Virus record (IMG/VR): IMGVR_UViG_3300045988_119030
Coordinates: 149,411 to 181,323 of that record
Length of the DNA: 31,913 nt
From: a virus
Strand: one strand, 5' to 3'
Shown here: in pieces, positions 2,493 to 31,046 of the stretch
Numbering within the stretch: the first letter of the stretch is position 1
Layout of the letters: every line of letters begins with the position of its first letter
Program-made: the position numbers and the translations under genes
The notes under the pieces: generated by a model
The model's database searches: none
Told to the model about the DNA's origin: nothing
The model's input: only the letters and a program-made list of their open reading frames with translations

Positions 2493-2996
2493 TTAAATTG
2501 AATAAAAGCAATTAGGACATAAATACTAATTATCATCTATTTTAAATAATGGAATATTACTTACTTGTAAATTACATTTAAAGCATTGTTTATTTTTATA
2601 AATTTTTGGTATAAAAATTTCTATATTTGGCTCAAATAAATTTAAAAGATTATTAGATATTTTTTGAAAGTAAATATCTTTTTCTTTATTAGTATCATTA
2701 TAATTATATTGTAAAATATATTTACATATTACTTTACAATGATTTAAATTAGTTAATTTTAATTCTTCTACTGGAATAATAATATCAGATATATTATCTA
2801 AATTTATTTTAGATTTAATTGTATATTGTATTTGAAGAATTATAGTTTTATCTTTTTTAATAATTCCTAAATTAAAGCAAACAAAAAGTATCCAATAGTC
2901 ATAAATACTATTACTGTCAAAATCAAAAGATAAAGCTCTTATTTTATCCCAAAAGATTTGTTCTGGAATTTTAAATCCGCCATTACTAAATTTCAT
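2493..2996 (-). CDS. Hypothetical protein (~167 aa) with C-terminal 4-Cys zinc ribbon (CFKC...CPNC). Contains an in-frame TAG at 2526-2528
   Basis: Track ORF 2526..2996 ends in TAG. The frame continues QYLCPNCFYSI to a TAA at 2493-2495. RBS GGAGAG before ATG 2996. Confidence 0.5.
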
Positions 2997-3154
2997 TTAA
3001 CTCTCCATTAAAACAATACTCATAATAATTATTTGTATCTTTTTCAATTTGAATACTCCGAGGATAATCTAACTCCCAAGATGTTCTTTTATTATAAAAC
3101 TATAAAAAATTTTTTACTATATCTTGTATAAATTCTTTATATTCATCGTAAGTA

Positions 3155-5212
3155 TCAATCATATAAATCATACTCTTCTTTCTCAAGATAATTTAAAAAT
3201 TGATCATGGGCAAATTGATAATATATATATCCATTAAAATAATTTAATATTGGATATATTTCTTTTTTTAAATTATCAAATGATTTAATATATTCTCCAT
3301 CTAAACAATGAAAATTAATAGTATTGTTTTTTATATCACCTATAATTTTTTTACTTAAAGGGCATAAACAATCATTATTTATTTGTTTTAAAGGATAAAT
3401 TAAATTTATTTTATATAAAATATAATAACTTGTTTTAATAAAATTTTCTATAAAATAATTATTATGTTTTGTATAAATTAAATTATCATATTCATAAAAA
3501 TATTTTATTTCATATAAAATTCTAATAATTATTGATTGTAATATTTTATTTTTTTTATCTAAATTTAAATTATAGATATAAAGAAACTGTAAAAAGAAAA
3601 TAACTATTTTTACTAAATAATCTATAGCCTCAGACAATCCCGTATGAGATATGTTACCTGGATTAGTATTTAAATCAATTATATAATTTCCAATAGTCTA
3701 ATCAATTAGTTGTCCTTCTCCATATAAATTACATAAATCAAAAAATAAACTATCTTCGCATAAACAAAAATTACTATATTTTATATTATATTTCTATAAA
3801 AAACTTCGTTTTAAAAGTAATCCAAGTTTATTATCAGGAATAATAAACTATATAAAATCATTTTTTTCGTTATTTTTTATAAAATTATAAAGAATTTCTA
3901 ATTCATTATTTATATTAAATAAATCATCTGAATCCCAAAATAAAACATATTCATTAAAAGAATTTTCTAATCCTACGTTTCGTGCGACTCCAGGTCCTTT
4001 ACGAGTAAGATTTTTAAAAAAGAAACAAGGAAAATCCGCGTTATCAAATATTTTAATAACTTTTCTCTCACAAGCTGAATTATCACTTATTAAATATATA
4101 CAACAATCTTTAATAATTGTTTGCGCTCTTAATGAATTATATAAATCAATTATCTAATTATCATTAAGGTTATAATAAGGAATAATTATATCTATTTTGC
4201 CATCAATAAATCTATTTATACATTTTTGTAAATAGTAATTATTATATCGAAAGTCAATTGGAGTTTTACCATTTAAAAATTCCTAATAATTATTTAAAAA
4301 ATCTTCTTTATTATTTATAAGTTTTAAATAAAAGTCGTAGTCTTCAAAATAAGCATTTTCCATTGATACAGTAAATTCTGATTTAATGTTATAACATTTA
4401 TGCCATAGCCAAGAAGCGGTTGGTAAAGTAGCATCACAATATTTACAAATTTTCTTAGGTGAAAATATAAAATTATGTAAATCATCTAAGCTATTTATAT
4501 CTTCTAACTACAAATAATCTTCTTCCTCTTCTGGAATATTCAAATTATATTTTTTACAATAAATATCTAAGAATGCGGAAAAAGGACAGATATATATCTT
4601 ATAATTTTTTAATGTAAAACAAGGTATTTCATGTGGACAATATTGATAATAAGCCTTTGCTGGATCAGTATCTCCATTTTCATTTACAAGCTACTAACGC
4701 ATAAATAATCGCTCTTGATGATTAAAAGCAATACCATATTCTTGGCATTCTTCAACATCTTCATAATTTGTATAATTACTATAAGCAGTTATGTCGAACA
4801 TTATATCCATATCAAGGTATTCTTTTTTATGTTTAATAATATTTTTCATATTTAATCCATTAGATAAAACTTTTAATTGAGTTTTTTCTTTTGGAAATAT
4901 TTCACGAGCTATTTTACATAATTCAAATAGTTGTGGGTGAAGAGTTGGCTCTCCACCCACAATCATAAATACTTTTATATTAGGAATTTTTTTATTAGCC
5001 ATAATAACCTAATTGCGGAAATCATTTATATCAATAAACCAAGGCGTGGCTAAAGGTGAAAAATGATTACATCCCGCGCAATTAAGATTACAATGATCTA
5101 CTACTTGTATTTCTAAGCTTACACCATCATAAACAGATTTCCAAAGACTATGTGTATATGGAGGAATCCCACGATAATCTTTATCTTTCTTTATCTGTAT
5201 ATCGTTCATCAA
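3155..5212 (-). CDS. Radical SAM enzyme (N-terminal) fused to or translationally coupled with a GT-A/family-2 glycosyltransferase domain plus a C-terminal domain of unknown function. 12 in-frame TAG codons, including a TAG-TAG pair at 4691-4696
   Basis: One frame from ATG 5212 to TGA 3155-3157 with zero TAA/TGA. It links track ORFs 5009..5212, 4694..5002 and 3155..3637. Motifs: CNLNCAGC (CX3CX2C) and GGEPTLHP (rSAM). IDIIIPYYN...SLRAQT, ARNVGLENSFNEYVLFWDSDD (GT2 Rossmann start, ARN...DxDD). Cys-rich stretch after the rSAM core. Confidence 0.6.
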
Positions 5213-5762
5213 ATTCTCCTAATATATGTGTATTATAATCAACTAATTCTCTTATTTGATTATTGCGTTCATGTAAAAAACATTGAGTACAAATTTCATT
5301 TAAATTGTTTAAAGGTTCATGGAAAAAATTGCAATAATGTTTTTCAAAATCAACATATTTACAATACTTATCGCATATTAAAATATTACTATCTTTATTA
5401 TAAATCACAGGATGATCTTCTCGTAAGCGGAAAGATAGCTGAATTTTAAACATTAAAGTTCCTTGATAAGAATATAAAAAAGTTTTATAAAATATATCTT
5501 GGACTTTACTTTCAAAAGTAAATTTCTATTTATCTGTAGTAATAAGCTCAATGCATTCTATTTCATTCTAATCTATAGCTTTAACTTGCTAATAAACCTA
5601 ATTTAGAAAAGAATAATCAATATCATTCTAATTTTTAATTATTTTTGCAAAAACTATTTCTTTTGGAAAATTTAATTGAAATATAATATCATCACATTGA
5701 CGCTCATTAAATTTAACAGATTTTAAAATTTCTTTATCTGAATTAATAAAATTAATAACCAT
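5181..5762 (-). CDS. Hypothetical small Cys-rich protein (CDKYCKY...HYCNFF...CTQCF). Possible N-terminal extension to ATG 5762 containing 6 in-frame TAGs. The core 5181..5453 is a clean ORF
   Basis: Frame from ATG 5762 runs into track ORF 5181..5453 with only TAG interruptions. The high TAG density makes the extension uncertain. Overlaps the rSAM start by 32 nt. Confidence 0.3.
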
Positions 5763-6090
5763 TTCGTTTATCAGGAATTCCTTTTAATCGATCTCCTAAG
5801 AAATATCTATATAATTCATAAGAATCAGCAATATTATCGCATAAACAATTATTATTATTTTCATTGTTATTATTATCGTTATTATTATTATTATTATTAG
5901 ATTTTTCTGCATGATCTGTAATAATTATTTTAATGAAATTATTGATAATAGTATTAATTTCTTCATTTTCACCATTATTTTCAATCCAATTTAAATAAAT
6001 AACATATAAAAGATCTCTATAATCTTCTACATTGCTATAATCAAAAGTTTCAATTAAATGATTAATTTGATTTTTCATTTCTTCAATCAT
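5752..6090 (-). CDS. Small Asn-rich protein (112 aa) with a poly-N tract and a C-terminal CLC motif. Candidate precursor peptide or accessory protein of the rSAM-SPASM enzyme
   Basis: ORF overlaps the stop of the upstream rSAM-SPASM gene (ATGATTGA coupling). Low-complexity KSNNNNNNNDNNNNENNNNCLCDN. Confidence 0.5.
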   Translation of the reverse strand: MIEEMKNQINHLIETFDYSNVEDYRDLLYVIYLNWIENNGENEEINTIINNFIKIIITDHAEKSNNNNNNNDNNNNENNNNCLCDNIADSYELYRYFLGDRLKGIPDKRNGY

Positions 6091-7489
6091 TGTAATACCC
6101 CAAATTATGGCAAAGATTTAACCAATTTTCTTTATATTTTTCATCTGGAAAATAATTTTTTTCTAAAGCAATTTTAGTTAATCCTAATTCACAATAACTT
6201 TTAACTAAAAAAGATATTCTTGTTTTATGTAATTCACAAACACTTTTAGGCGGTAAAAATAAATCTCCAGTAGCTTCGAGTGCCGCACCAAGGCAAAGTT
6301 TTAAACAAAACGGATCATAAGGACAAGTAACACATCCAACATTTAAATGAGTATTGTTTGTCTTAATTACTGTATAAAGACTTGGATTAATTGCTGTAAT
6401 TCCAATAATTTTATCATTTTCAACTTCAAATTTACCGCCAATAAATTGCTGATAAGAAGTTCTGTGGCAAGGAACTAATTCCATAGTAGCAACATATAAA
6501 CAAGTTTGATGAGAAATTGCACAAGTGTAATTTCCATCTTTCCAAGTGACAGTTGGTTGTAATGGATCATAATTGTGTAATCCAATTAAAGATCCTTCTT
6601 CCCCATCTCCTAAAAAGATATGTCGAGCTAACTTATCTAATGAACTATCATTCATTTGGAATCTAATTTCAAGCATGTGAGTTAAGAATTCAAGATAGTG
6701 ATTTAATTTTTCTTCAGTCCATTCATCATTACGAACTTCTAAGAACATGGGCTGAAATTCATCGCGAGGCCCTTTACATAATTTATATTTCTCAAATTGT
6801 TCAAGCCACCAATCATAATTTTTAATAGCGCTTTCAATATTATTTGGAGAAATCATTGGATGAATACCGCAACAGTTCTTAGAAAGAAATTGCATAATCT
6901 TATCATAATATTCAAAATCTTTATTTTCTTCTCTTACACTATCATAAGGACCATCTACAGAACAAGATAAATTTAATTCCATTTCAAGGTCAAGAAATTT
7001 TTGAAGATATTCTTCCACTTTAGCTGCTTTTTTATCATCAGCAACAAAACTAAAGTTATTGGGGAAAGCAATACGAGGATGATGATTCTTAAAAAGATTA
7101 GGATGTTCTTCAAAGAGAGCTCCATAATATTTTAAAAGTAAATCAAAAATACTAAAGCCTAAATTATCATAAAATAAATCTCCAGCAAAGAGTTCTATTT
7201 CAAGGAATAAGACTTTTCTTTCGTTAAAAATATAATCTAATATAATGTTCATATTTTTAAGAATTTTTTCATTATTTGCTCTTGTTTCAAGTGGGTATAA
7301 ATCTTTTCCGTAACGAGCAATATAACAATATTCACACTTTTGATTACATTCTGGACGAATAATAAACTCAAAAGAGCTTTCATTTATCCAATATCCTTCT
7401 TCTTTATCCCCTTGATTAAAGCAATGGTTATCAAGAAATTTTTCAAAATATTTATTATTATCTAAAATACAACCTTCACTAATATTCAT
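6083..7489 (-). CDS. Radical SAM / SPASM-domain enzyme (peptide/protein-modifying maturase class), 468 aa
   Basis: CNQKCEYC (CX3CX2C) near the N-terminus. C-terminal CAISHQTC...C and GCVTCPYDPFCLKLC (CX2CX5CX3C SPASM signature). Start overlaps the TAA of the upstream gene by 1 nt. Confidence 0.8.
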   Translation of the reverse strand: MNISEGCILDNNKYFEKFLDNHCFNQGDKEEGYWINESSFEFIIRPECNQKCEYCYIARYGKDLYPLETRANNEKILKNMNIILDYIFNERKVLFLEIELFAGDLFYDNLGFSIFDLLLKYYGALFEEHPNLFKNHHPRIAFPNNFSFVADDKKAAKVEEYLQKFLDLEMELNLSCSVDGPYDSVREENKDFEYYDKIMQFLSKNCCGIHPMISPNNIESAIKNYDWWLEQFEKYKLCKGPRDEFQPMFLEVRNDEWTEEKLNHYLEFLTHMLEIRFQMNDSSLDKLARHIFLGDGEEGSLIGLHNYDPLQPTVTWKDGNYTCAISHQTCLYVATMELVPCHRTSYQQFIGGKFEVENDKIIGITAINPSLYTVIKTNNTHLNVGCVTCPYDPFCLKLCLGAALEATGDLFLPPKSVCELHKTRISFLVKSYCELGLTKIALEKNYFPDEKYKENWLNLCHNLGYYND

Positions 7490-8991
7490 TAATTGTATAC
7501 TCCTTGTTCTGTATATCTATCGTCATCCCAACATTCTTTAGGTAATACCCAATTATTTTCTCTATCAACATAATTATATAAAGCAGAAGAAATTCTTAAA
7601 GTTCCAATGCTTCTTAATAATTCACTACCAGTAGAAACCAAATTATTATAAGTACAAGCAAGATTTTTTGTTGTAATAAAAGCTAAGTGAAGCAATTTAT
7701 TATAATCATATTTATACACTGAATTTAATTGTCCGCACTCATTTAGCATTTGATATTCATTTAAAATAGTTTGAAACATGAATGGAAAAGAAGTGGTTTT
7801 AAATAAATTATATTTATAAAACACCTTATCAATTTCTTCATCTGATGCTGTTAAAAGATTAACACAAGAATGTCCTCTTGTCATTAAGTCTTTACGGGAA
7901 AGAGTGTCAATAGTGCCATCATCTTTAATGTTGTTTGGGTTTATATCAAACATATAATTTTGACAAGATACCATAGTACCGTCCCATAAAAGCTTTAATT
8001 CACTCCAATTAGAGCCACAAAAATTATTCATAGATAATGATCTAATAACTTCTTCATTTTTATCTTTAATGCATTGTAAAGCTTCTTCAATTGTTAAAGG
8101 GCATCCTTTTTGAGTCACATATTCTCCCAAATCGCATAAACTATCTTCATAAACACTTCTATATCCAACGATTAAACTAACTGGCATTCGTGGATCATGA
8201 AAATCAGACACATCAATATTAATTAATCTTTGTAAAAAAGATTCATACTCAATACGCTCATCCACTGATCCGTCTCTTGGATGTTCTGGACAAATAGAAA
8301 CTGAAGGATTAAGCGTAATAGCTTGATTAATAACTTTTTCATTTAATTCATATCCAAAAGTATCTAATTCTTTATAATAATCATGAACTTTTTCAAGAGT
8401 ATCTAATTGATTAATGAGCATTCCAGACAATACACCATGTAATTGTATTGAAATATTTGTATGATTAAATTTAATTTTATTTAATCCCTCTATAACTGTT
8501 GAAATAGTTTGAAAAATACGTTCATTATTTGCATTTCTAATATTATTAGTAGAATAAGCTCCATCATATGAAAATTGAATTGATAAATTCACATCATCTT
8601 GAGTTGTTAATTCATCTACTCTTTTAGCAAAAGCAATTATACGTTCTGGAAAATCCATTCCATTAGTTGAAAAATCAATATTTCTAATATTAGGAAAAAA
8701 TTTAAACCAATCATCTAAATGCTCTGTAATAAGATGAAGTGTTAGTGTTGGTTCTTGACCCCAAAATCCAAAATTATCAATTATATATCTATCAAGGTCT
8801 AATCTTTTAAAAATTTTTTTTACATTTTCAAGATAAGAACCATCAGTTAAAGCTTTAATTGTATCTTGTTGTAATTTAGCAGAACAACCATTTAAACTAT
8901 TTTCTATCATGCAATACTAACAATGTAAATTACACCCACATGAAGATACGAGTGTTACTGCTCTAACATCTATATCTGTATTTTTTTTCAT
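7489..8991 (-). CDS. Radical SAM enzyme (~500 aa) whose CX3CX2C motif is split by an in-frame TAG at 8917-8919 (SSCGCNLHC-TAG-YCM). True start is ATG 8991 with RBS AAAAAGGAG
   Basis: Track ORF starts at 8910. Upstream same-frame reading gives MKKNTDIDVRAVTLVSSCGCNLHC*YCMIENS. GFWGQEPTL aligns with the GGEP motif. Confidence 0.7.
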
Positions 8992-9017
8992 AAATTCTCC
9001 TTTTTCTCTTAAAAAAT

Positions 9018-9770
9018 TTAAGATCTTGATCTTCCTGCTCCACTTCTATTCGCGCTGTTAGAAGTATAAGCCCCTCTATAGGAGCAAGGTCTATAACTGC
9101 CTCTATGAGTATCATTATTAGAGCCTCTATGGCTTGTATAATAAGTATAATTACTTGAATAATTAGAACTATTATAAGCATTATTAGAACTTCTATTAGA
9201 ACCGTTATAAGCATTATTAGAACCTCGATGAGTTCCATCATAAGCATAGTACCCATTTCTATGTGTACCATTATAACTAGCGTCATAAGCATTATTAGAA
9301 GCTCTATAACTACCATTATAGCCACCATCATAAGCATAATTAGAGGCTCTATAACTACCATCATAACTAGCGTCATAAGCATTATTAGAAGCTCTATAAC
9401 TACCATTATAACTACCATCATAAGCATTATTAGAAGCTCTATAACTACCATTATAACTACCATCATAAGCGCAAACCGCGTTTACTTCTTCAAGTTTTGT
9501 CCTAATTTGTGATAATGGAATATATCTAGTTAACTCATTTACTCTTGGGGCTGTAAAGGTGTCAAAAGTTGCTTTTGTACCAACGTAAGATACATTTCTT
9601 AAATTTTCAATTTCGTTCTTTATTGTGATAACATCTCGCGCCCCAACTCTTTGTTTAGTCTTATCAGGAATAGCAGTTCTACTTTGAGAAAATCTTGTTT
9701 GCGCTGTATTTAAGTTATCATATAAAGCACGAACATCAGCCCATGAAATTCGACTTCCTGTTCCTGCCAT
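9018..9770 (-). CDS. Tyr/Asn/Ser/Gly-rich tandem-repeat protein (250 aa): a ~95-aa N-terminal domain followed by ~15-aa repeats AYDGSYNGSYRASNN. Second gene of the operon, just upstream of the three rSAM genes
   Basis: Clean ORF, RBS AAAAAGGAG, TAA stop. Overlapping track ORFs 8963..9466 and 9228..9512 are repeat artefacts. Confidence 0.7.
   Translation of the reverse strand: MAGTGSRISWADVRALYDNLNTAQTRFSQSRTAIPDKTKQRVGARDVITIKNEIENLRNVSYVGTKATFDTFTAPRVNELTRYIPLSQIRTKLEEVNAVCAYDGSYNGSYRASNNAYDGSYNGSYRASNNAYDASYDGSYRASNYAYDGGYNGSYRASNNAYDASYNGTHRNGYYAYDGTHRGSNNAYNGSNRSSNNAYNSSNYSSNYTYYTSHRGSNNDTHRGSYRPCSYRGAYTSNSANRSGAGRSRS
9111..9470. repeat. Tandem direct repeats (45-bp unit, four perfect or near-perfect copies at 9291-9470, degenerate 30/45-bp copies upstream) encoding the repeat tail of the protein above
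   Basis: Exact 45-bp duplication ATTATTAGAAGCTCTATAACTACCATTATAACTACCATCATAAGC at 9381-9425 and 9426-9470. Confidence 0.8.
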
Positions 9771-9784
9771 AATTTTGCTCCTTT

Positions 9785-10195
9785 TTAATTATTAATTGAA
9801 TATTTAATTACAAAATCAACAGAAGAATTATATTCTTGTGCAAAAACTTGGTCCCCAATATCATTACTATACTCAAAAGAAAGTTCTTCAATATCATTTA
9901 ATTTCTTATCAAAAATAACACGATAATCTTCTGAAGTTGTTAAATAAGCAACTGTTATTTTATCCATAGTCTCTCTATTTAACTTTTTAATAATATTAGC
10001 TCCCTATTTAGCCAAATTTACTTTTTCCATATCATATTCTTGGCTAAATTCACGCATACGAAGAAAACAGAATTTGTTTTCAGTATTGGAACTAGAAGTA
10101 ATAGTAAAAGTAATTGGACCTGTAAGGATAGTATCCTCTACGTTTCCATCTTTATTAGTAATAGTAATTTTAAAAGTATTATCTAAATTTACCAT
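9785..10195 (-). CDS. Hypothetical beta-rich protein (136 aa) with one in-frame TAG (10004-10006) that joins track ORFs 10004..10213 and 9785..9967. First gene of the long operon
   Basis: Start ATG 10195 preceded by GAGGAGG at 9-nt spacing. The ORF ending in TAG continues in frame into the next ORF. Confidence 0.55.
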
Positions 10196-10224
10196 TTTAA
10201 TTTTCCTCCTCAAAAATTTTATAA

Positions 10225-10256: not shown

Positions 10257-10344
10257 TTATAAAAAAAAATTTTATTAATTTAATCTTTTTTGATTAAGTA
10301 TTTAAGTCTTTATTTAATTTATATTAATATAATAACAAAAAAAA

Positions 10345-10374
10345 AGAGTAATGTCAAATGACATTACTCTTTAA
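10345..10374 (-). terminator. Rho-independent-like hairpin (AAAGAGTAATGTCA-AA-TGACATTACTCTTT) after gene 10376..10681
   Basis: Perfect 14-bp stem flanked by A/T runs. Confidence 0.55.
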
Positions 10375-10375: not shown

Positions 10376-10681
10376 TTAACTTAATCCTAATCTTGCCTTT
10401 AGATCAGCAATATTTTTCTTTTCATCTGTAGTAATTTCAATCGGGGTTTCTCCACCTGCGGTTGCCCCATCTTCAAAATTCAAAACATTTGAATCCGCGG
10501 TTGCGCCTGCTTCACCGACCGGAGTCTTTGGGCATGTCATACTAATAGCAATCTGAATTCGCTCACCATTCTCATTAGCCCAAAGATAATACTTTTTATC
10601 TCGCTCGCCGATCCAATCAGCGCCAAATACTTCCGCCATTTTCTTAGCGATCTGTTCCTTAGCTACTGCACCTTTAGCCAT
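10376..10681 (-). CDS. Hypothetical protein (101 aa)
   Basis: Clean ORF, TAA stop, ~45% GC. Confidence 0.65.
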   Translation of the reverse strand: MAKGAVAKEQIAKKMAEVFGADWIGERDKKYYLWANENGERIQIAISMTCPKTPVGEAGATADSNVLNFEDGATAGGETPIEITTDEKKNIADLKARLGLS

Positions 10682-10693
10682 ATCTAATTCTCC

Positions 10694-21019: not shown

Positions 21020-21021
21020 AA

Positions 21022-21273: not shown

Positions 21274-21274
21274 A

Positions 21275-21547: not shown

Positions 21548-21590
21548 AAGCGTCTCTCCTTTTTTTATCTTCTCTTTAACTTTCTATATA

Positions 21591-22653: not shown

Positions 22654-22706
22654 TTCCTTTCTTAACTTTATATATATATTATATTATATTTTTTTATAAA
22701 AATAAA

Positions 22707-22740
22707 ATAAGGACTTATGAATTAACATAAGTCCTTATTG
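22707..22740 (-). terminator. Hairpin AATAAGGACTTATG-AATTAA-CATAAGTCCTTATT after gene 22742..23332
   Basis: 14-bp perfect stem. Confidence 0.6.
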
Positions 22741-22741
22741 T

Positions 22742-23332
22742 TTAATGAACTGAATGAGCATCGCCCATGTAATAAATAGTTTCACCTACGTCTGTGATTT
22801 CACCACAAACGGTAATGTAAGAACCTTTCTTGGCATCCTTAATGAAATCGTAAACATCAGAGCCCTTGTCCATACTCCAATGGATATTATCTAAGAGAGT
22901 AAAATCGTCAGGATCAGATACAATGGTGAAGTATTTACCATCACTATCAACAGTGTCAAGATAACCTGATACCTGAATATACTTACCAGTATACTCTTCC
23001 TCAGCTTTGATAGGATAATCTTCTACCATATCAATCATCTTAGAAAGAGATTCGGATGAATATTCAGCGGTTTCCTGCTCATCGGTCTCTTCGCCTGAAT
23101 CAACCGAACTCTGAGACGAGGCTCCCGCACTTTCCACAATCGGAGTGCGGTATACAGTAGGTTCAGGATCGGGATTCCTAATGACATAATCAATCCCCGT
23201 AAAAATGATAAGCACAAGGAGAATATGGAACCAAGTCTTATCGTAGAAAGGAACCTTTACATTGCCTCCACAAAACGGACAAACTTTTGACTTATCAGAA
23301 ATGGGCTGACCGCAATGTTTACAAATAATCAT
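22742..23332 (-). CDS. Membrane protein with an N-terminal zinc ribbon (CKHCG...CPFCG), one TM helix, an acidic linker and a C-terminal beta-rich domain
   Basis: Motifs and hydrophobic segment seen in the translation. Confidence 0.65.
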   Translation of the reverse strand: MIICKHCGQPISDKSKVCPFCGGNVKVPFYDKTWFHILLVLIIFTGIDYVIRNPDPEPTVYRTPIVESAGASSQSSVDSGEETDEQETAEYSSESLSKMIDMVEDYPIKAEEEYTGKYIQVSGYLDTVDSDGKYFTIVSDPDDFTLLDNIHWSMDKGSDVYDFIKDAKKGSYITVCGEITDVGETIYYMGDAHSVH

Positions 23333-23343
23333 TTTTATTCTCC

Positions 23344-23748
23344 TTATTTCAGCTCAATAAATTCAAGCCGATCAACATATTCTCCGGCATAGATCTTCAA
23401 CCAAGGGTTCGCGCGATTAGATTTTGCGCTCGCAAGGGTTTCATTATACTCTTGGATGTCTTCATAAAGTTCGGTTGCGCCAAGGTTATTATCATTATCG
23501 GTATAATCCTGTTCAAGTCGCCATTCAAGAGCTTCTCGACGAGCCGTATATTTCTCGTAAAGAGAATCACTATATACATTTTCATTGATAACCACAATAG
23601 TAGAAAATACCATTACGATTCCAAAGATAACAGTGCCGATGAAGCCAACAATCGAACTAATACAACCAAGAGCAGAATATCTATTAGAACTCCAAACTAT
23701 GAGAGCGATAAAGCCTGCAAGCGCAAGAATAAAAACTACATAAAGCAT
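23344..23748 (-). CDS. Membrane protein (134 aa, two N-terminal TM segments)
   Basis: Hydrophobic N-terminus. Confidence 0.6.
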   Translation of the reverse strand: MLYVVFILALAGFIALIVWSSNRYSALGCISSIVGFIGTVIFGIVMVFSTIVVINENVYSDSLYEKYTARREALEWRLEQDYTDNDNNLGATELYEDIQEYNETLASAKSNRANPWLKIYAGEYVDRLEFIELK

Positions 23749-23761
23749 AACTATCTTCTCC

Positions 23762-23968
23762 TTAATGAATAAAATATTGAATTACTCCATACACTCCTGA
23801 TATGATTGGGAGCATAGAGATTATAAGTAGCAAACTTCCAGTAATGACACAAGTGTCAATTAAAAACGTATCTTCGGGAGCACTTGCGCCGTCAGCAAGC
23901 TTGAAGATACATAAGGCAAGCCTTGCTATAATTAATCCAAGAATAATTTCTACAATAAACTCTACCAT
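23762..23968 (-). CDS. Small two-TM membrane protein (68 aa), holin-like topology
   Basis: Strong RBS GGAGGAGG. Hydrophobic segments. Confidence 0.5.
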   Translation of the reverse strand: MVEFIVEIILGLIIARLALCIFKLADGASAPEDTFLIDTCVITGSLLLIISMLPIISGVYGVIQYFIH

Positions 23969-24044
23969 ATATCCTCCTCCTTAATCTAAGTCATCGAACA
24001 AAACGGATAAAATGCCAAGAGCGCAAAAACAAAGAATAATTACT

Positions 24045-24215
24045 TTAAGCATAAAAGACTGACTGAATGAAGCCGGCAAACAGGCAAAGCAACATACCCA
24101 TACCGCAGTAATAATACTTCTCATTGAGAGACATAGTATCATCATCCAGTAGATCCATATACATAAAGCCGAAAAATACTAATATAATAAATAGCATAAT
24201 AATCATTTCTCCCAT
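24045..24215 (-). CDS. Small membrane protein (~56 aa)
   Basis: Start ATG 24215 after RBS GAGGAGG. Overlaps the end of the phosphoesterase gene by 13 nt. Confidence 0.35.
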   Translation of the reverse strand: MGEMIIMLFIILVFFGFMYMDLLDDDTMSLNEKYYYCGMGMLLCLFAGFIQSVFYA

Positions 24216-24943
24216 ACCTTTTTACCTCCTCGCTTCTGCTTTCTCTTGGTCGCGGTGTCGATTGTTTTTCTGTGGACGCTCCCGATTTTCGCAGTCGGAC
24301 CATTTTTCATGAACTGATTCAAGTTCAAAGGGGCGGGACCAAACACATCCACACAAACATTCTTGTGATAGATGTCCGTCTCTTTATAATTGTGGTCGTG
24401 GCCATGAAGATTGAGAGCCCAGTCCTGCTTAATCGGTTCGTGAGAAAGCATAAGTTTCTCACCAATAAGGAGCGCACCATCATACACTTCGTCAAAAAGA
24501 CCGTTATCCGCGGAAACCTCCCAATATTCAAAGGGAGTGTGGAAATCAAATCCCGAATCAATAGAATATTTACAATCAGGATAAAGACGCTTCATTTCCA
24601 TGAGCGCTTCGTCCTTTTGGTAGTAATCCATAGAGAATTTCTTCTTGACGATTTTGCGCTTATAGTTTTCAGATCCCGCATCATGGTTGCCCTTGATGAG
24701 AACCTTATAACCGGCGCGCAGTTTCCGCACATAGGAGATATTGCCTACATCACCAAGATGAATTAATAGATCGCTTCGACCGCACTTAGAATTAATTATT
24801 TTAACAATTTCTTCGTCGGAAGGACGATTATGAATTCCCTGATGAAGATCTTCGTCTCCAAAATGAGTATCACTAATAACCCAACAAGTTTGTAGATTTT
24901 TCCATCTATCTAAAAAACTTTCATAGACACCAGGTAAATTCAT
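24203..24943 (-). CDS. Calcineurin-like metallophosphoesterase (phage Ser/Thr phosphatase-like, 246 aa) with a C-terminal Lys/Arg tail
   Basis: Motifs DTHFG, GDVGN, GNHD and HGHDH. Confidence 0.75.
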   Translation of the reverse strand: MNLPGVYESFLDRWKNLQTCWVISDTHFGDEDLHQGIHNRPSDEEIVKIINSKCGRSDLLIHLGDVGNISYVRKLRAGYKVLIKGNHDAGSENYKRKIVKKKFSMDYYQKDEALMEMKRLYPDCKYSIDSGFDFHTPFEYWEVSADNGLFDEVYDGALLIGEKLMLSHEPIKQDWALNLHGHDHNYKETDIYHKNVCVDVFGPAPLNLNQFMKNGPTAKIGSVHRKTIDTATKRKQKRGGKKVWEK

Positions 24944-24955: not shown

Positions 24956-25885
24956 TTAACAAATTCTAAAAATTGTTGTATCCAATTTCAAATCATTAAT
25001 TGATAATTTATCTAAATGAAAATATGGGATTCTAATTAACGGGATGTTATTTTCTTTACACCATTGATTTTTAAAAGCATCATGTTCTTTTGTTTTTTCA
25101 AACTTTTCTAATGTATTCCAACCAGTTCCAGATTGATAATGCTATATTCCATCAAATTCAATTAAATAAGAATTATCAATATAAAAATCAAATTTAGCTT
25201 TATGGTTAGTATCCTAAAATTTACAATTTTCAAAAGTTTTTTCACAAATATACTAAATATTATGTTCTTTTAATAAAGAGATAATTTTTTCCTAACCTGC
25301 TGATTGTAAACAACCACAAGATTTACTTTGTCCTTTTCTTAAAGTAGTTCCTGATACAATTTTTTGATTGCCACAAGAGCATTGGCATAACCACATAGCA
25401 GTATTATGCTAATTAGATCCACTACGTTTTAACACTGTCCATCGACCAAAAGTTTGTCCTGTTAAATCAATTGTTGTAAGTTCACCGATCTTTTTATGAA
25501 TATAACAACCACATGAAATAACGGCGCCACTTACTAAACCATCTTTACGAATACTTTTAATAGTTCCACAATCACACTAACATTTCCAATAAGTATGCCC
25601 TTTTCCTTCTGTTCTATCATATCCTAAAACTGTTAGCATACCGAATTTTTTACCTGTTAAATCTTCTAACTGTTTTAAACGTTTCTAACATCCACACGAA
25701 GTTGTATGATTTGAAGTTAAATGAGAAGCAGAGACTACTGTCTTATTACCACATTCACATTGACATAACCAATACGATCCTTTTCTTGAATATTCAACTC
25801 GATATAAAACTGTTAATTTTCCAAAATGCTAATTAGTCAAATCTTTTGCTTGTCCTACTGGAATCTATTTATAAATTTTTTCCAT
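24956..25885 (-). CDS. DNA endonuclease-like protein: three N-terminal zinc-finger repeats (FG.LTVL...W.CQC.CG...SCGC) plus a C-terminal DUF559/Vsr-like PD-(D/E)xK domain (DFYID...IEFDGIQH). Nine in-frame TAG codons
   Basis: Region has no track ORF. Frame from ATG 25885 (RBS AAAAGGAG) to TAA 24956-24958 contains only TAG interruptions. TAG occupies positions that are CAA (Gln) in the sister repeats. Confidence 0.6.
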
Positions 25886-25979
25886 AAAATCACTCCTTTT
25901 CTATTATATGTATAAATAGAAAAGGATAAAATAATAAAATTTATCCGAAGTCGCCAACCCGATTATTCAACCGGCCTCC

Positions 25980-26255
25980 TTAAAATGCGTAAGCATTAAA
26001 TTTATACATATAGAACTCGCCATCCATAAGAAGAAGTTTATCAATCTCTTCTCGATGATCGATCTTCCACCAATCAGGAGCAGGAAAAGGAAGATCGTAA
26101 TACTCGATTCGCTGAGTTTCCATAATATCTTCTTCGATTGCACCTTCGAGGAAAGCAAGATATAACTCTTCCGCTTCTGCTTCTGAAATGTTGGCGAATG
26201 TCCAAGACTTACCAGTCATTTCATCTTCGATTTTATAACAAGTAATTTCTTTCAT
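25980..26255 (-). CDS. Small acidic protein (91 aa)
   Basis: Clean ORF. Confidence 0.55.
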   Translation of the reverse strand: MKEITCYKIEDEMTGKSWTFANISEAEAEELYLAFLEGAIEEDIMETQRIEYYDLPFPAPDWWKIDHREEIDKLLLMDGEFYMYKFNAYAF

Positions 26256-26266
26256 AGTTATTCTCC

Positions 26267-26587
26267 TTACATTTCAACCGCATCAACGAAATCAATGAAA
26301 ACATCATTGGCGACCTCGTTCATCATATCGAGGTAAGAAGAAAATCTCCTTGTCCACTCGCCGGTCATTTCGCCGTGGTAAAGATACCAATCATAATCAG
26401 AATCTTTCTGAATCATTTCGAACTGACGCTCCATAAGACTATCATCGACCATATCTCGACAATATTCCATAAACATTTCCTGCATATCGGCTTCGGACGC
26501 ATTCAGGAAATAGAAATTATGGTCTCCGGCCGTATCACAAAGAATACCAATAGAATGAGTTTTAATCTTAGAATTAGAAGTAGTCAT
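26267..26587 (-). CDS. Small acidic protein (106 aa)
   Basis: Clean ORF. Confidence 0.6.
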   Translation of the reverse strand: MTTSNSKIKTHSIGILCDTAGDHNFYFLNASEADMQEMFMEYCRDMVDDSLMERQFEMIQKDSDYDWYLYHGEMTGEWTRRFSSYLDMMNEVANDVFIDFVDAVEM

Positions 26588-26620
26588 AATTTTTATTTCC
26601 TTTCTTTACTTTATATATAT

Positions 26621-26649
26621 ATTATATATTATTTTTTTAAAAATGTCAA
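26621..26649 (-). promoter_or_regulatory. Conserved promoter TTGACA-N17-TATAAT
   Basis: tgtcaa at 26644-26649 and attata at 26621-26626. Confidence 0.55.
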
Positions 26650-26680
26650 AAAAGGATTTGCGGTTTGCGCAAATCCTTTT
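26648..26680 (-). terminator. Hairpin AAAGGATTTGCG-N5-CGCAAATCCTTTT after gene 26686..26901
   Basis: Stem plus U-tract. Confidence 0.65.
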
Positions 26681-26685
26681 AGAGA

Positions 26686-26901
26686 TCAGAGAACGGGAGC
26701 ATAATTATAATAAATAATCATGTCTTCCAGTGCATCTTTGTAAAGTTTTGTATCAAATTTACGACAATGGAATCGTTTCTCGACATTCTCTTCGATCGCG
26801 GACATAGCGATTTCGAGAGCGTCAGATTCACTTACGTTTGTAGCGCAGTAAATCTCATCACAAGGCGCGTCATAAACGAATACGACAGGCATATGATTCA
26901 T
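26686..26901 (-). CDS. Small hypothetical protein (71 aa)
   Basis: Clean ORF. Confidence 0.5.
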   Translation of the reverse strand: MNHMPVVFVYDAPCDEIYCATNVSESDALEIAMSAIEENVEKRFHCRKFDTKLYKDALEDMIIYYNYAPVL

Positions 26902-26959
26902 ATATTATTCCTCCATTAATTGATTTTACCCAAAATTTTTGTTATAATATATTTAGAAA

Positions 26960-27199
26960 TTAAAAGAGTTCAGTCGCATCAAAGAGATTTAAGAACTCTT
27001 CGGCAATCTCAGATGATACAAGTAAACTTGTTGATCCATTGAACCAATCAATGTAAATACGAGTAAGTGGACTACCACCGGCTTCCGCGATTTCATCAGC
27101 ATACTGTTTAGAATCAACGGGAGAGAAGCTAACTGCATTAATGTTATTTGTGTTAATAAGATATTTATAACCGCGGAAATTGCGAATAATTACATTCAT
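26960..27199 (-). CDS. Small hypothetical protein (79 aa)
   Basis: Clean ORF. Confidence 0.55.
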   Translation of the reverse strand: MNVIIRNFRGYKYLINTNNINAVSFSPVDSKQYADEIAEAGGSPLTRIYIDWFNGSTSLLVSSEIAEEFLNLFDATELF

Positions 27200-27480
27200 C
27201 TAAATGCCTCCTCAGAAACAAAATTTTTGAGTTGTCTTATAACTCTCATACCATCAGGATCTCTATCGGTAAAGGTGTATTCATAGCGAGATTTATCTTT
27301 TAGACAAAATTCAAGCTTTGTTCCAGAAGTCTCGGTGGAGATATCATCGTCATCTGAGTTATCCATAGTAATGCGGTTAGCCAAAACCACGACAATCTCA
27401 TTTATATTAAGGAAAACACGGTCGCCGTTAGACATTTTTAAATAAATCAATTCACCTTTATTCATTTTACTTCTCCACAA
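27196..27480 (-). CDS. Small hypothetical protein (94 aa)
   Basis: Clean ORF, 4-nt overlap. Confidence 0.55.
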   Translation of the reverse strand: MWRSKMNKGELIYLKMSNGDRVFLNINEIVVVLANRITMDNSDDDDISTETSGTKLEFCLKDKSRYEYTFTDRDPDGMRVIRQLKNFVSEEAFR

Positions 27481-28066
27481 TATAATCTTTCGCTACATCT
27501 GTTCCTTCTGGAATATAGAGATAAGTGCGCGTTGACTTAGAACAAATGAAGAACCACTCTCTCCAATCGCCGTAGCGCGGGAGTCGCTTCTCAACGTGCG
27601 GAACCTGATTAGAGTAAACAACTACCGTGTCATTTGCCGGATAATTCTTAGTGCTTGTAATGCCATCAGCGCTAAGGGTAAGATAAGTGTAATAAATACT
27701 TTCACCCTCGAAAGCGCGGTAAGTATAGATATTGCCATCATCATCCATACTTGTTAACTCTTGGGCTTCCGCAATCGTATAATCATATTCGGAATAATCT
27801 TCCTTAACAGAAGACATTATAACTCCGCCAAACATACTTACGGCAAGATAAAGACAAACGCCGATCCAAAAGGCAGGAATAATTTGACGGGGAATGTCAA
27901 CGCGGTCGCGGTGAGACCAATTGCGGAAGCGCTTGGCCTTAGGATCGGAAAGAGTGCTGTAATAGCCATAGCTACAATATGCAGAATGAATGGCGAAAAT
28001 CAGAAAAATAATTAAGGTCGGTAGAACAAATCCGCCCACGAGCGTTTTCAAGAAGAAGATAAGCAT
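27467..28066 (-). CDS. Membrane protein (199 aa, two TM segments)
   Basis: Hydrophobic segments. Confidence 0.65.
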   Translation of the reverse strand: MLIFFLKTLVGGFVLPTLIIFLIFAIHSAYCSYGYYSTLSDPKAKRFRNWSHRDRVDIPRQIIPAFWIGVCLYLAVSMFGGVIMSSVKEDYSEYDYTIAEAQELTSMDDDGNIYTYRAFEGESIYYTYLTLSADGITSTKNYPANDTVVVYSNQVPHVEKRLPRYGDWREWFFICSKSTRTYLYIPEGTDVAKDYIVEK

Positions 28067-28080
28067 ATTTAAAAACTCCT

Positions 28081-28530
28081 TTAAAGAATAGGTTTAAGTT
28101 TATTGCAACAATTGAAATCTCTCATACAGCCATTTTCTTCGCTGAAACAAGAACAACCATTTTGGCAAGTATTACGAATAATGTCGGGATTACGGACATT
28201 CGTGATGGCTTGCATATTTCCAACGATTTCTCGCTTTTGGATCATTTTCGGCGTGTCGGGAGAATCATTAAACGCGCAGTTCACATTTTGTTCACAATTT
28301 GCGCATGTACTAAGTTTTGCCCAACATTTATCGCAATAAGTGTTGCCTTGATCGTCGATGATCATTTGCTTATGGAAAATTGGAGTATGACATGCTTTAC
28401 AAGTGTAATATTCACCGCAAAGAAAATTATCGCAGATCGCATGATTTGGGTCAATTGTATTGCCTGTGATTTGACATAATCCGGTCGTTGGCCGGTAATA
28501 ACCGCAGTTATTACAATAAAAAGTCATCAT
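28081..28530 (-). CDS. Cys-rich protein (149 aa) with multiple CxxC pairs
   Basis: YCNNCG...CDNFLCGEYYTCKAC...CDKC...CANC read from the translation. Confidence 0.65.
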   Translation of the reverse strand: MMTFYCNNCGYYRPTTGLCQITGNTIDPNHAICDNFLCGEYYTCKACHTPIFHKQMIIDDQGNTYCDKCWAKLSTCANCEQNVNCAFNDSPDTPKMIQKREIVGNMQAITNVRNPDIIRNTCQNGCSCFSEENGCMRDFNCCNKLKPIL

Positions 28531-28781
28531 AGCACTTTGGCAGAATATGGAGCATCTTCGCCATCAAATTTTAGAATCTTGTTAGCAAGATCGTGATTGA
28601 CGCGCAAAGGGCCATCATCAAGAGGAGTAAATGCAACAGTAATAAGATCGTCGAAATACTCTTCGGCCCAACGGCCAGCTTCTGCGAGAGTTTCCGCGAA
28701 GATAAAACCGCACGTAAGTCTATCCATTTTATCAGAGTCGTCCCAATAACGTGCTTCATAATAAACGGGGCATTGTTTCAT
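28527..28781 (-). CDS. Small hypothetical protein (84 aa)
   Basis: Clean ORF. Confidence 0.55.
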   Translation of the reverse strand: MKQCPVYYEARYWDDSDKMDRLTCGFIFAETLAEAGRWAEEYFDDLITVAFTPLDDGPLRVNHDLANKILKFDGEDAPYSAKVL

Positions 28782-28797
28782 ATTTATTTTCCTTTCT

Positions 28798-29136
28798 TTA
28801 AGAGATTGTAGAGATTAGAAAAATCTCGGGATCATCAAGGCTTTCGATGGGGATTTTGAGAAACTTTGCGTAAGCTTCCTTCATTGTGTTATTAAGGCGA
28901 TAATACTCCTGCGGAGCGATGAAGATATTGTCGATGCGGACGGCCTCGCCTGCGGAAGACTCACCGAGAAGATAGCCGAAGATAGGATTTTCGTCGTTAT
29001 CATAGTCGCTTGCGCGATGCCAATAACCTTCCTCGGTAAGCTGTTCGATAGCCTCAGCCATATTATCATAGTTTTCAAGAAGGTTCTTGGGGACTTTATA
29101 ACCACACACGAGCTTAGAACCAAAATCAACAGACAT
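28798..29136 (-). CDS. Hypothetical protein (112 aa). First gene transcribed leftward from the divergent control region
   Basis: Clean ORF. Confidence 0.6.
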   Translation of the reverse strand: MSVDFGSKLVCGYKVPKNLLENYDNMAEAIEQLTEEGYWHRASDYDNDENPIFGYLLGESSAGEAVRIDNIFIAPQEYYRLNNTMKEAYAKFLKIPIESLDDPEIFLISTIS

Positions 29137-29261: not shown

Positions 29262-29640
29262 TATCAAAAATGGTCATTTTAAATGAAAATGGTCAAAATT
29301 TTCTGATAAATGGTTAAAATTTTCTATATTTTTGTCCGTTTTTTTCTATATTTCTGGTCAAAAATTTCTGATGAAGAGATCGGATAGCAAGTATAGAGGC
29401 GGATTAGGGCAAGGGAAACCGCATAGGTAATTTTTCATAGTTCCCTATTTTTATATAGATGTCTAAATTTTAAACAAAATAGGTAAAAATTTTAGGTAAT
29501 TTTTCATAGTTCCCTATTTTTATTTAGAATTTGTAGGTAATTTTTAATAGTTAGCGATCGGTTTGGTTAGAATTTTTAAGAAATTTTTCATAGTTGCCTT
29601 TAAAAATATACTTTGGGTAAAAATTGTTAAAATTACTATT
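29262..29640. repeat. Iteron-like direct repeats of two families: TGGTYAAAAWTTTCTGAT (3 copies) and TAGGTAATTTTTCATAGTTCCC (3-4 copies). Putative replication origin / divergent regulatory region
   Basis: Repeats read directly at about 29289, 29309, 29355 and 29424, 29493, 29534, 29581. Confidence 0.55.
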
Positions 29641-29846
29641 TTAGATTTGAAGTATATATGAAGGAGGTGAAAGTATTGTCAATAGAATAGAAAAGATTTC
29701 CTGCTAATGTAGATATGAATATATTAACTTTTTTAAATAATAAGAAGATAAATGGTGAATTATATGCTTATTTGTAGAGTTTATCTGATTATAATGTGAT
29801 TAATAAATAGCATAATATTTATAAAACTTATGTATTAAAAAAATGG

Positions 29847-30308
29847 TTGCCGATTCAAAGTAAGATGTGTCAAATGCTTGGTATTAAAAGTCCTAAAACA
29901 TTAAAAACGCATTTGAATTATTTAATTGAGCAAGGGTATATTATCGAAGAAGAAGATAGATATATATTACCTGAAATGGAGAGTATATATTTTCTTATTC
30001 CGCTACCTACATTAAGATATATAAATGATAACTGTAAAGAACATATTATAAAGATATATATTTATTTAGGATAGCGTTATAAATATGCGTTAAATAATGG
30101 AAGTTAGTATGAATTTACATTAGAGGAAATTGGAGAGCATAGTGGTATAAAAGTAAAGAATAACAGCAGGGGCTATGAGATTATTAATAATGCTTTAACA
30201 TTTTTATAGAATTCAGAATTAATTGATTATGTTAGCTTTTTTGATGGATAGACGCAGAAAAAGAAATTAACAAAATTTAGTTTTGAATATAAAAATTAGA
30301 ATAGGTAA
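29847..30308 (+). CDS. Putative DNA-binding / replication-initiator-like protein with two HTH-type segments. Five in-frame TAGs (30072, 30105, 30207, 30249, 30297). Start is TTG 29847 or ATG 29865
   Basis: Track ORF 29847..30074 ends in TAG. The frame continues to TAA 30306-30308. Flanked by iterons on both sides. HTH-like segments LGIKSPKTLKTHLNYLIEQGYI and FTLEEIGEHSGIKVKNNSRGYEIINNAL. Confidence 0.45.
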
Positions 30309-30360
30309 TTTTTACTAGTTCCCGATGAGCATTTTAGGTAATTTTTCATAGATGCTTCGA
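30303..30360. repeat. Two more copies of the TAGGTAATTTTT(A/C)ATAG iteron at the 3' end of the Rep-like gene
   Basis: Direct sequence match to the 29424 family. Confidence 0.5.
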
Positions 30361-30423
30361 CTTAAATTAGGTAAAAAATCATAGATTATCTAAGTAATAA
30401 GTAGAGGGTGTTTTCTAAGTAGT

Positions 30424-30473
30424 TTGTATGATACAAACGATCGGCATCCGCCTCACTTTGTATCATACAAACG
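30424..30473. promoter_or_regulatory. Two near-identical palindromes GTTTGTATGATACAAAC and TTTGTATCATACAAACG about 30 bp apart. Candidate operator pair upstream of gene 30506..30709
   Basis: Palindromes read directly. Confidence 0.45.
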
Positions 30474-30505
30474 TTTGATTTTTAAATGAAAAGAAGGGTA
30501 ATAAA

Positions 30506-30709
30506 ATGAAAAGAAATTTATATCAATTTGATTTTAGTATGTATAGTTTAGCAGGAATGCCAGGTAATGATAAAAATTTACAATCAGATTTTGCCAGAGG
30601 GTTGATAGAAATGTATTATAAAGGTAGATATACAGGCAATAATAAATTAGTTAAATAGTATTTTGAAGAATTAACTGATAAATATATGATTGATCATAAT
30701 ATTAAATAA
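30506..30709 (+). CDS. Small protein (67 aa) with an in-frame TAG at 30656-30658
   Basis: ATG after AGAAGGG. TAA stop at 30707-30709. Confidence 0.4.
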
Positions 30710-30722
30710 GGAGTAAAAAGTA

Positions 30723-31046
30723 ATGGCATATAGTTATGAAGATGTAGTAAGAGGTGGAAAGGGTAATATGTCAATAATAAGATTTGTAAGAGGAACGCAA
30801 GAATAGTTTGATAAAATGGATAAAACAGGTATTATACAACCTAATATATATATGAAAGATGATATTCTTTATTTTGTTGTTCCAGATGATACAAAACCAG
30901 TAAAGGTAAAGTATGATGATAGAAAAGTAGAATGGAATGAATCAGGAGTAGGAAGTTTAGTTAAAAATAATGATAGACCTGAATCAATAGAAGAGAATCC
31001 ATTCTTACAAGAGTCAATTAACTCGGATACTACGTATCCTCGTTGA
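30723..31046 (+). CDS. Hypothetical protein (107 aa) with an in-frame TAG at 30804-30806 that joins it to track ORF 30816..31046
   Basis: RBS AAGGAG before ATG 30723. TGA stop. Confidence 0.5.

Follow-up and report, generated by a model that had tools for sequence, protein, structure and literature searches.

We analysed a stretch of 31,913 nucleotides (hereafter the window) from the IMG/VR virus record IMGVR_UViG_3300045988_119030, positions 149,411 to 181,323, in which amber codons (TAG) lie in-frame in a few genes and are absent from most others. The window is a piece of a tailed phage of about 195 kb, whose family is undescribed so far. One of its products, a 455-amino-acid (aa) protein, has relatives at 67-95% identity on nine IMG/VR contigs. 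Since the five largest of these contigs measure 161-197 kb (the others are shorter fragments), the window was assigned to a phage family of roughly 195 kb. A megablast search with 20 kb of the window against the INPHARED phages gave no match, and several core genes match PHROG families of unknown function. With TAG read as a sense codon the coding density of the window is 0.85, compared with 0.73 under the standard code and 0.76 when TGA is read as sense.

Genes of the window and their in-frame TAG codons

Genes lie on the (-) strand over 1-29136 and on the (+) strand from 29658 onward. They form two compositional classes that differ in the GC content of third codon positions (GC3), one AT-rich and accessory, the other comprising the core genes:

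1-10213 (-), 24956-25885 (-) and 29658-31046 (+): AT-rich accessory slots; GC3 0.08-0.22
10376-24943 (-): conserved core block of about 22 genes; GC3 0.24-0.51; TAG-free except for codon 35 of the gene at 13156-13956
25980-29136 (-): second core block of about nine small genes; TAG-free

The first core block holds two paralogues of 484 and 534 aa, a peptidase, the 455-aa protein, a DUF5052 protein and a phosphoesterase. Using our own gene models, we counted 36 in-frame TAGs across nine genes of the window and two more within a 66-aa open reading frame (ORF). The genes concerned, together with two TAG-free enzymes of the AT-rich class, are:

605-2392 (-): YcaO, 595 aa; Pfam YcaO 7e-26; GC3 0.12; 0 TAG/13 glutamine (Gln) codons
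2493-2996 (-): zinc-ribbon protein, 167 aa; one TAG (2526-2528), before the second CxxC half-site
2986-3186 (-): 66-aa ORF; two TAGs, the second right before the TAA stop
3155-5209 (-): fusion of a radical S-adenosylmethionine enzyme and a family-2 glycosyltransferase (rSAM-GT2), 684 aa; 9 TAG, 13 CAA, 2 CAG
5181-5762 (-): Cys-rich protein, 193 aa; five TAGs
6083-7489 (-): 468-aa enzyme named "SPASM" in the first-pass annotation; AT-rich; 0 TAG/11 Gln codons
7489-8991 (-): radical-SAM (rSAM) enzyme, 500 aa; one TAG (8917-8919), the other 17 Gln codons all CAA
9785-10195 (-): 136-aa gene, first of the AT-rich cluster; one TAG, fixed in relatives L001 and L005
13156-13956 (-): core gene, 266 aa; TAG at codon 35 (13852-13854)
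24956-25885 (-): zinc-finger/HNH-like homing endonuclease, 309 aa; 9 TAG, 9 CAA, 1 CAG
29658-30308 (+): Rep-like helix-turn-helix (HTH) protein, 216 aa; 8 TAG, 3 CAA, 1 CAG
30723-31046 (+): 107-aa ORF; one TAG (30804-30806), conserved in relative L094

The first-pass annotation had reported about 37 in-frame TAGs, crowded into a few genes and missing from most large ones. Both the total and the pattern were right. The first (2526-2528) and the last TAG (30804-30806) lie exactly at the bounds it gave, its nine TAGs in the nuclease were recovered, and YcaO, the "SPASM" enzyme, both paralogues, the 455-aa protein, the peptidase and the phosphoesterase, all listed there as TAG-free, have 0 TAGs each. 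Two of its counts had to be revised: rSAM-GT2 carries nine TAGs instead of twelve (ten when an upstream TTG is taken as start, twelve only if the 66-aa ORF is merged into it), and the Rep-like gene carries eight instead of five.

The distribution is indeed far from uniform. TAG makes up 38-67% of the Gln codons in four TAG-rich genes (rSAM-GT2, the Cys-rich protein, the homing endonuclease and the Rep-like HTH gene) and 0-8% in all others; the genes at 2493-2996, 7489-8991, 9785-10195, 13156-13956 and 30723-31046 have a single TAG each. Pooled, the four TAG-rich genes use 31 TAG, 32 CAA and 5 CAG, compared with 4 TAG among 66 Gln codons in the other AT-rich genes (31/37 vs 4/62, Fisher p = 1e-7) and 1 among 115 in the core genes (31/37 vs 1/114, p = 5e-15). 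Over all genes, TAG set against the other Gln codons gives a chi-square of 82.6 (df 39, Monte-Carlo p = 1e-4), and the dispersion of TAG per codon across genes gives p = 4e-17. Every TAG-rich gene is AT-rich, yet the AT-rich genes also include YcaO, the "SPASM" gene, the rSAM gene at 7489-8991 and a 292-aa gene, which are TAG-free or TAG-poor.

The TAG-rich ORFs are genuine genes and not decayed ones, because they contain no in-frame TAA or TGA over 167-684 codons (P = 1e-7 to 2e-25, with an expectation of about 0.08 per codon from base composition) and because the Pfam domains Radical_SAM (46-156) and Glycos_transf_2 (352-473) of rSAM-GT2 both run across TAGs. Correct gene models for this region require TAG to be read as Gln. 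Standard-code calling would break up the genes for rSAM-GT2, the nuclease and the Rep-like protein and would drop the Fe-S motif from the radical-SAM enzyme, in which the TAG at 8917-8919 lies inside the CNLHC-x-YC (CxxxCxxC) cluster motif; relatives L006 and L092 have AAA at the matching codon.

The AT-rich cluster at 1-10213 (-), with its co-directional, overlapping genes, looks like a phage-borne modification pathway of the kind that acts on ribosomally synthesized and post-translationally modified peptides (RiPPs). Its genes encode the 136-aa protein, a 250-aa protein with AYDGSYNGSYRASNN-type repeats, the rSAM enzyme, the "SPASM" enzyme (no Pfam family at E<=0.01), a 112-aa Asn-rich protein, the Cys-rich protein, rSAM-GT2, the zinc-ribbon protein, YcaO and the 292-aa protein. 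Only some family members have this RiPP-like cluster; others have glycine-rich fibre-like genes in that slot. The 66-aa ORF ends in a TAG-TAA tandem (2986-2991, -) that would terminate translation under both codes, and its orthologue in L010 has 67 aa and two TAGs. The zinc-ribbon orthologues carry two TAGs in L010 and nine in L092, and the Cys-rich orthologue in L092 (52% identical) carries four, none of them at the positions used in the window. One near-consensus promoter precedes the cluster:

10329-10357 (-): sigma-70-like promoter, TTGACA-17-TATTAT, TG-extended; overlapped by a terminator hairpin (10343-10372)

Decoding of UAG and the suppressor tRNA

The phage decodes UAG as glutamine, and its whole genome, not merely some of its genes, is code-15-like. 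TAG is a sense codon in intact genes and terminates none of the 44 complete genes of the window (34 end in TAA, 10 in TGA). Comparison with relatives places Gln at the TAG positions. In rSAM-GT2, TAG/CAA and CAG/TAG swaps were found between the window and L010, a genome 92% identical to it. Across 83 aligned nuclease homologues, no residue is as enriched at TAG columns as Gln (5.6-fold), and one conserved column consists of 63 Gln and 11 TAG. The TAGs of the Rep-like gene align with CAA or CAG in L096. TAG can substitute for CAG or CAA in every gene class.

No tRNA genes were found within the window. The suppressor was located by walking left from the window region in relatives, where an array of about 20 tRNA genes begins just past the left window edge. 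A tRNA(CUA) is present in all seven family loci that span this array (7/7), some 10 kb beyond that edge, and it carries U1 and G73, like tRNA-Gln. Judging from relatives that are 84-100% identical, the genome of the window itself probably encodes it as well. The suppressor adjoins tRNA-Tyr and some of its alleles are long, which suggested that TAG might stand for Tyr. This was rejected, as close relatives swap TAG with CAA/CAG and not with TAT/TAC, and as the acceptor end is Gln-like.

Two unrelated alleles of tRNA(CUA) occupy the same slot between identical flanks (L097 15549-15693; L106 15138-15210), one measuring 90 nt, whose variable region holds an additional arm, and the other 73 nt; an additional arm, about 17 nt long, is found in most alleles. 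Directly 3' of the tRNA lies a weak match to a hepatitis delta virus (HDV)-like ribozyme (26 bits, against an Rfam gathering score of 44). In recoded gut phages, theta ribozymes, which are minimal HDV-like ribozymes, have been described directly after suppressor tRNAs (Kienbeck et al., Nat Commun 2024, PMC10879173). The arrangement found here resembles those units in that a tRNA(CUA) is followed by an HDV-like match inside a large phage tRNA array. It differs in its position, some 10 kb beyond the window, in a ribozyme match that stays below the gathering score and in the extra arm of most tRNA alleles.

The first tRNA of the array in all family loci (e.g. L010 15576-15646, L004 20839-20909) scores 37.9 bits in Rfam, and its anticodon loop (AUUUAA) counts 6 nt, one fewer than normal. 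Lying beside the window, it had been considered as the suppressor and was set aside after the normal tRNA(CUA) turned up. ARAGORN also called an 80-nt tRNA-like gene with an opal-reading TCA anticodon (L097 16911-16990, L106 16489-16568), which may be a false call; despite it, TGA serves as stop in 10/44 genes of the window.

Gene-specific purifying selection against TAG

To obtain an expectation for TAG usage we derived a neutral model, a chain CAA<->CAG<->TAG in which CAA>TAA and TAG>TAA are nonsense changes. At equilibrium the ratio TAG:CAA equals (T/C)(G/A) at neutral sites, with base frequencies taken from fourfold degenerate sites. The model predicts a TAG share of about 40-70% in AT-rich sequence; among genes whose sites suffice for an estimate, the expectation is 0.4-0.8 for most and 0.21-0.80 overall. 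The TAG-rich genes fit this model (observed 0.38-0.67, expected 0.40-0.80). A share above 50% in the Rep-like module had raised the question of positive selection for TAG, which need not be invoked, as a strong G>C skew of the coding strand lifts the neutral expectation there to 0.8. In contrast, YcaO (binomial p = 1.5e-4), the "SPASM" gene (p = 7.5e-5) and the rSAM gene at 7489-8991 fall below their neutral expectation, with p-values between 1.5e-4 and 2.4e-6, and the larger core genes do so individually (p = 0.001-0.04). TAG usage is bimodal: in a given gene it is either neutral or purged.

The same division was seen at a larger evolutionary distance. A YcaO homologue (P0004) that is 62% identical lies on the 20-kb Logan contigs L092/L093, which keep the gene order of the window. 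There the rSAM gene has one TAG, the "SPASM" gene 0, a 102-aa gene 0, the Cys-rich gene four, rSAM-GT2 nine, a 59-aa gene 0, the zinc-ribbon gene nine, and YcaO and the 292-aa gene 0 each. Protein identity between window and L092 is 62-70% for TAG-free genes and 44-60% for TAG-rich genes, so that the split by gene is kept across more than 35% protein divergence. The TAG positions themselves have turned over: in rSAM-GT2 only 4 of about 15 TAG columns are shared by window and L092, and the others reflect gain or loss in a single lineage. YcaO and the "SPASM" gene show CAA/CAG swaps in L010 and L092, but never TAG.

The core genes allow a direct comparison of two substitutions. Among orthologues from 9-10 genomes, a derived CAG>CAA change was found in 13 columns and CAG>TAG in two (binomial 0.004). 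Each of the two is a GC>AT transition, and with C scarce on the coding strand, TAG should if anything have been favoured. The two CAG>TAG columns, one each in L005 and L009, both fall in the gene at 13156-13956, the one core gene in which TAG is tolerated; its TAG at codon 35 is kept in 8/9 genomes and is CAA in L007. Core homologues in distant recoded relatives (L018, L026, L045, L074) are TAG-free, while the adjoining nucleases carry 5-10 TAGs.

The L092 pattern with its turned-over positions, the 13 to 2 ratio and the TAG-free cores of distant relatives all indicate selection, as opposed to acquisition or a short time since recoding. Ongoing gene-specific purifying selection keeps TAG near zero in most genes. 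Selection acting gene by gene, and not past gene transfer, hence accounts for partial amber recoding in this phage family of about 195 kb, and the TAG share of Gln codons, measured against the neutral CAA/CAG/TAG equilibrium, provides a yardstick that sorts TAG-neutral from TAG-avoiding genes by sequence.

Proposed suppressor-dependent translation and competing explanations

Gene-biased recoding is already known in alternatively coded gut phages; here it occurs in an undescribed family. Borges et al. (bioRxiv 10.1101/2021.08.26.457843) described code-15 gut phages including Lak, crAss-like, Jade, Sapphire and Garnet phages, found only 26-71% of genes recoded in phages with standard-code hosts, noted preferential recoding of a homing endonuclease, and proposed a model of suppressor-dependent translational gating in which recoding acts as a late or lytic timer. 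The present phage resembles theirs in reading TAG as Gln through a phage suppressor tRNA, in the loss of TAG as terminator, in its low-GC genome, in the preferential recoding of a homing endonuclease and in the scatter of recoded genes over a large genome. With 10/45 recoded genes (22%), the window is also close to their Sapphire clade of about 200 kb (26%), a likeness in share only. Two features differ: the TAG-rich genes of the window are the homing endonuclease, the rSAM-GT2 sub-cluster and the Rep-like module, not capsid or lysis genes, and TAG-rich and TAG-free genes alternate within one operon-like cluster. The novelty is mild and consists of the conserved split within a RiPP-like operon and of the neutral-equilibrium yardstick.

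The position of promoters and of an origin-like region bears on when the genes may be translated:

13138-13166, 13981-14009, 18442-18471 and 26621-26649 (-): perfect TTGACA-N17/18-TATAAT promoters in the core blocks, the last of them in the second
29424-29612 (+): four 36-nt repeats of iteron-like type, upstream of the Rep-like gene

Four perfect sigma-70 promoters compare with 0.07 expected in the window, and all four are followed by a stereotyped leader, TATAGAAAGTTAAGAAAGGA. These promoters and the AGGAGG ribosome-binding sites suggest a Bacillota-like host, and they suggest that the core blocks may be transcribed by the host RNA polymerase. Two further iteron-like repeats lie at 30302-30370, so that six copies (TAGGTAATTTTTCATAGTTCCCTATTTTTAT...) flank the Rep-like gene, whose product has weak HTH_36/LexA_DNA_bind matches. 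The strand switch and the GC-skew minimum coincide with the repeats at 29424-29612, and this region is a probable replication origin, with replication genes on its other side from the core blocks. TAG usage of the Rep-like orthologues is 10 TAG/2 CAA in L094, 8 TAG/0 other in L095 and 3 TAG/9 other in L096. The codon-35 TAG of the gene at 13156-13956 stands directly downstream of the perfect promoter at 13981-14009 and is a candidate for a single-codon translational gate.

Suppressor-dependent timing was one of two explanations offered in the first-pass annotation. We lean, if modestly, towards a version of it in which UAG gates translation through the phage tRNA(CUA), the avoiding genes being read before the code switch and the tolerant ones after it. 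Translation of the avoiding genes would take place while host release factor 1 (RF1) continues to terminate at UAG, either ahead of a sufficient supply of suppressor tRNA or in its absence. Many of them lie behind consensus host-type sigma-70 promoters beside the replication origin and may be early or middle genes. TAG-tolerant genes would be needed, or tolerated, only after the switch, their early expression being needless or harmful; in them TAG would be neutral and would incidentally block premature expression. This minority with neutral TAG usage comprises the homing endonuclease, rSAM-GT2 with the small Cys proteins, the Rep-like module and the glycine-rich, fibre-like proteins of relatives, which carry 4-7 TAGs. 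The genes behind sigma-70 promoters and those on the replication side are TAG-free except 13156-13956 and the Rep-like gene, where 'early' refers to promoter type only. Gating appears to be the best reading of the TAG bias, with timing deduced from sequence features.

What stands of the timing proposal is that TAG means Gln, that the family has a tRNA(CUA), that usage is bimodal and that avoidance is selected. Several observations weigh against it. In the co-directional cluster behind one strong sigma-70-like promoter (10329-10357), TAG-rich genes are intermixed with TAG-free ones and overlap them; the split does not run between transcriptional early and late blocks. The gene at 13156-13956 pairs a perfect sigma-70 promoter with a conserved codon-35 TAG, and the rSAM gene at 7489-8991, otherwise TAG-avoiding, has its TAG in the catalytic motif. 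The iteron-flanked Rep-like protein is expected to be early, yet its gene is the most TAG-rich of all. Clustering of TAGs towards the N-terminus, as would suit a gate, was not significant (Kolmogorov-Smirnov p = 0.29). Enrichment of TAG in late genes was seen only in the fibre-like genes of relatives, the capsid, portal, terminase and lysis genes lying outside the sampled DNA, which for one relative amounted to about 60 of 194 kb.

The strongest competitor invokes expression level without timing. Read-through by the suppressor would always compete with RF1 and come at a cost, and TAG would be purged according to the amount and fidelity of product needed, so that it builds up only in genes expressed in trace amounts, where multiple TAGs may act as attenuators. 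It shares with gating the demonstrated selection against TAG, and the interleaving of the two gene types in one operon comes naturally to it. The base following TAG (+4) is more often A or C and less often G or T than that following CAA (p = 0.018), a shift that hints at competition with termination and speaks for gating as well. Moreover, the TAG-rich genes plausibly encode low-abundance products (a homing endonuclease, a DNA-binding protein, accessory enzymes), and strongly CAG-biased, probably highly expressed genes of L075 have no TAG. These are an 832-aa major-vault-protein-like gene (L075 4210-6708; 28 CAG/0 CAA/0 TAG) and a 461-aa flotillin/SPFH-like gene (L075 19098-20483; 18 CAG/3 CAA/0 TAG), in which codon selection is strong, as it is thus in some core genes. 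However, TAG usage is bimodal and not graded, TAG is likewise absent from about 25 small core ORFs to which no function is assigned, the TAG-rich genes reach the full neutral expectation, and the fibre-like structural proteins that carry TAGs in relatives are not trace proteins. We take efficiency or attenuation to be a serious but unlikely account, and prefer gating to it because of the bimodality and the lack of TAG in many small core ORFs.

A tentative extension of gating, which we consider rather doubtful, is that the code switch divides the enzymes of the RiPP-like operon, driven by a host promoter, into two sets for two-stage control. YcaO, the "SPASM" enzyme and the 292-aa protein might form a suppressor-independent set, and rSAM-GT2, the two small Cys-rich proteins and the zinc-ribbon protein a suppressor-dependent one. 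If true, recoding would provide intra-operon, two-stage control of a phage peptide-modification pathway and would reach beyond lysis and structural modules, and the TAG share measured against neutral equilibrium would be a sequence-only read-out of the genes translated before and after the switch.

The other explanation in the first-pass annotation was recent horizontal acquisition: the TAG-rich genes would come from a more fully recoded donor and the AT-rich, TAG-free genes from standard-code donors. Part of its premise was borne out. The TAG-rich genes all lie in AT-rich accessory slots that differ among relatives, and the nuclease is mobile, being present at this site in 2/9 relatives, with other copies elsewhere in the genomes; its homologues in standard-code phages have 0 TAG. 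As the cause of the pattern, acquisition is not supported, on three grounds. The L092 cluster is syntenic at 44-70% identity with an equal per-gene TAG pattern. The comparison of codon usage and GC that the annotation had called for confirmed that the TAG-rich genes are all AT-rich, but the relative synonymous codon usage (RSCU) without Gln codons is nearly identical to that of the TAG-free AT-rich genes (r = 0.92; 0.57-0.70 against the core). TAG-rich nuclease copies are polyphyletic and their nearest relatives are TAG-free; for example, the L075 copy with four TAGs shares 67% identity with its syntenic, TAG-free counterpart in L086, a phage in which TAG is a stop. In addition, the TAG/CAA/CAG swaps between 92%-identical genomes arose in situ, and the closest YcaO homologues beyond the family are only 30-39% identical. 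For the rSAM/YcaO cluster this explanation is largely refuted, and overall it is very improbable.

Still less probable is a mere time lag, in which recoding is young, fast AT-rich genes have equilibrated, slow core genes have not yet done so and selection plays no part. The TAG-rich genes do evolve somewhat faster, as their lower identity to L092 shows. However, rSAM-GT2 (60%) and YcaO (62%) are equally diverged and have 9-10 and 0 TAGs, respectively, in three lineages; the core genes acquired 13 CAG>CAA changes but two equally easy CAG>TAG changes over the same period; and cores remain TAG-free in distant recoded relatives. An artefact, with the TAG-rich ORFs as pseudogenes or the assembly as a chimera of recoded and standard-code genomes, finds some support in the jumps of GC content between blocks and is practically negligible given the long frames without TAA or TGA, the intact Pfam domains and the recurrence of junctions and gene order in several independent contigs.

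The homing endonuclease shows a further possible layer of control, which also speaks for gating. It matches PHROG 374 'HNH endonuclease' (2.6e-60), PHROG 9084 'homing endonuclease' and also PHROG 559 and 7140, and more than 557 relatives occur in IMG/VR, with a GC3 always below that of their neighbours. Its homology, patchy occurrence, multiple diverged copies and low GC point to a free-standing phage homing endonuclease. Upstream of the gene we found a stable structure:

25895-25925 (-): RNA hairpin whose 3' arm covers the nuclease Shine-Dalgarno sequence, with a TATAAT-like loop; -13.4 kcal/mol, z = -3.1

Nuclease paralogues in L075, L008, L026 and L018 likewise have a hairpin over the Shine-Dalgarno sequence or the start codon, with a TATAAT-like loop (z = -2.5 to -7.3). 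With the window copy this makes five hairpins of kept architecture and unrelated stem sequences. Homing endonuclease genes of the T4 type (I-TevI, mobE-type) are under translational control by hairpins that sequester the ribosome-binding site. The hairpins found here resemble these in being stable, in hiding the Shine-Dalgarno sequence of a free-standing nuclease and in having a -10-like TATAAT in the loop. They differ in that the protein combines zinc-finger repeats with a C-terminal nuclease that is HNH by PHROGs and not GIY-YIG, that the intra-hairpin promoter is only putative, and that the TAG codons would add a second block to that imposed by the hairpin.

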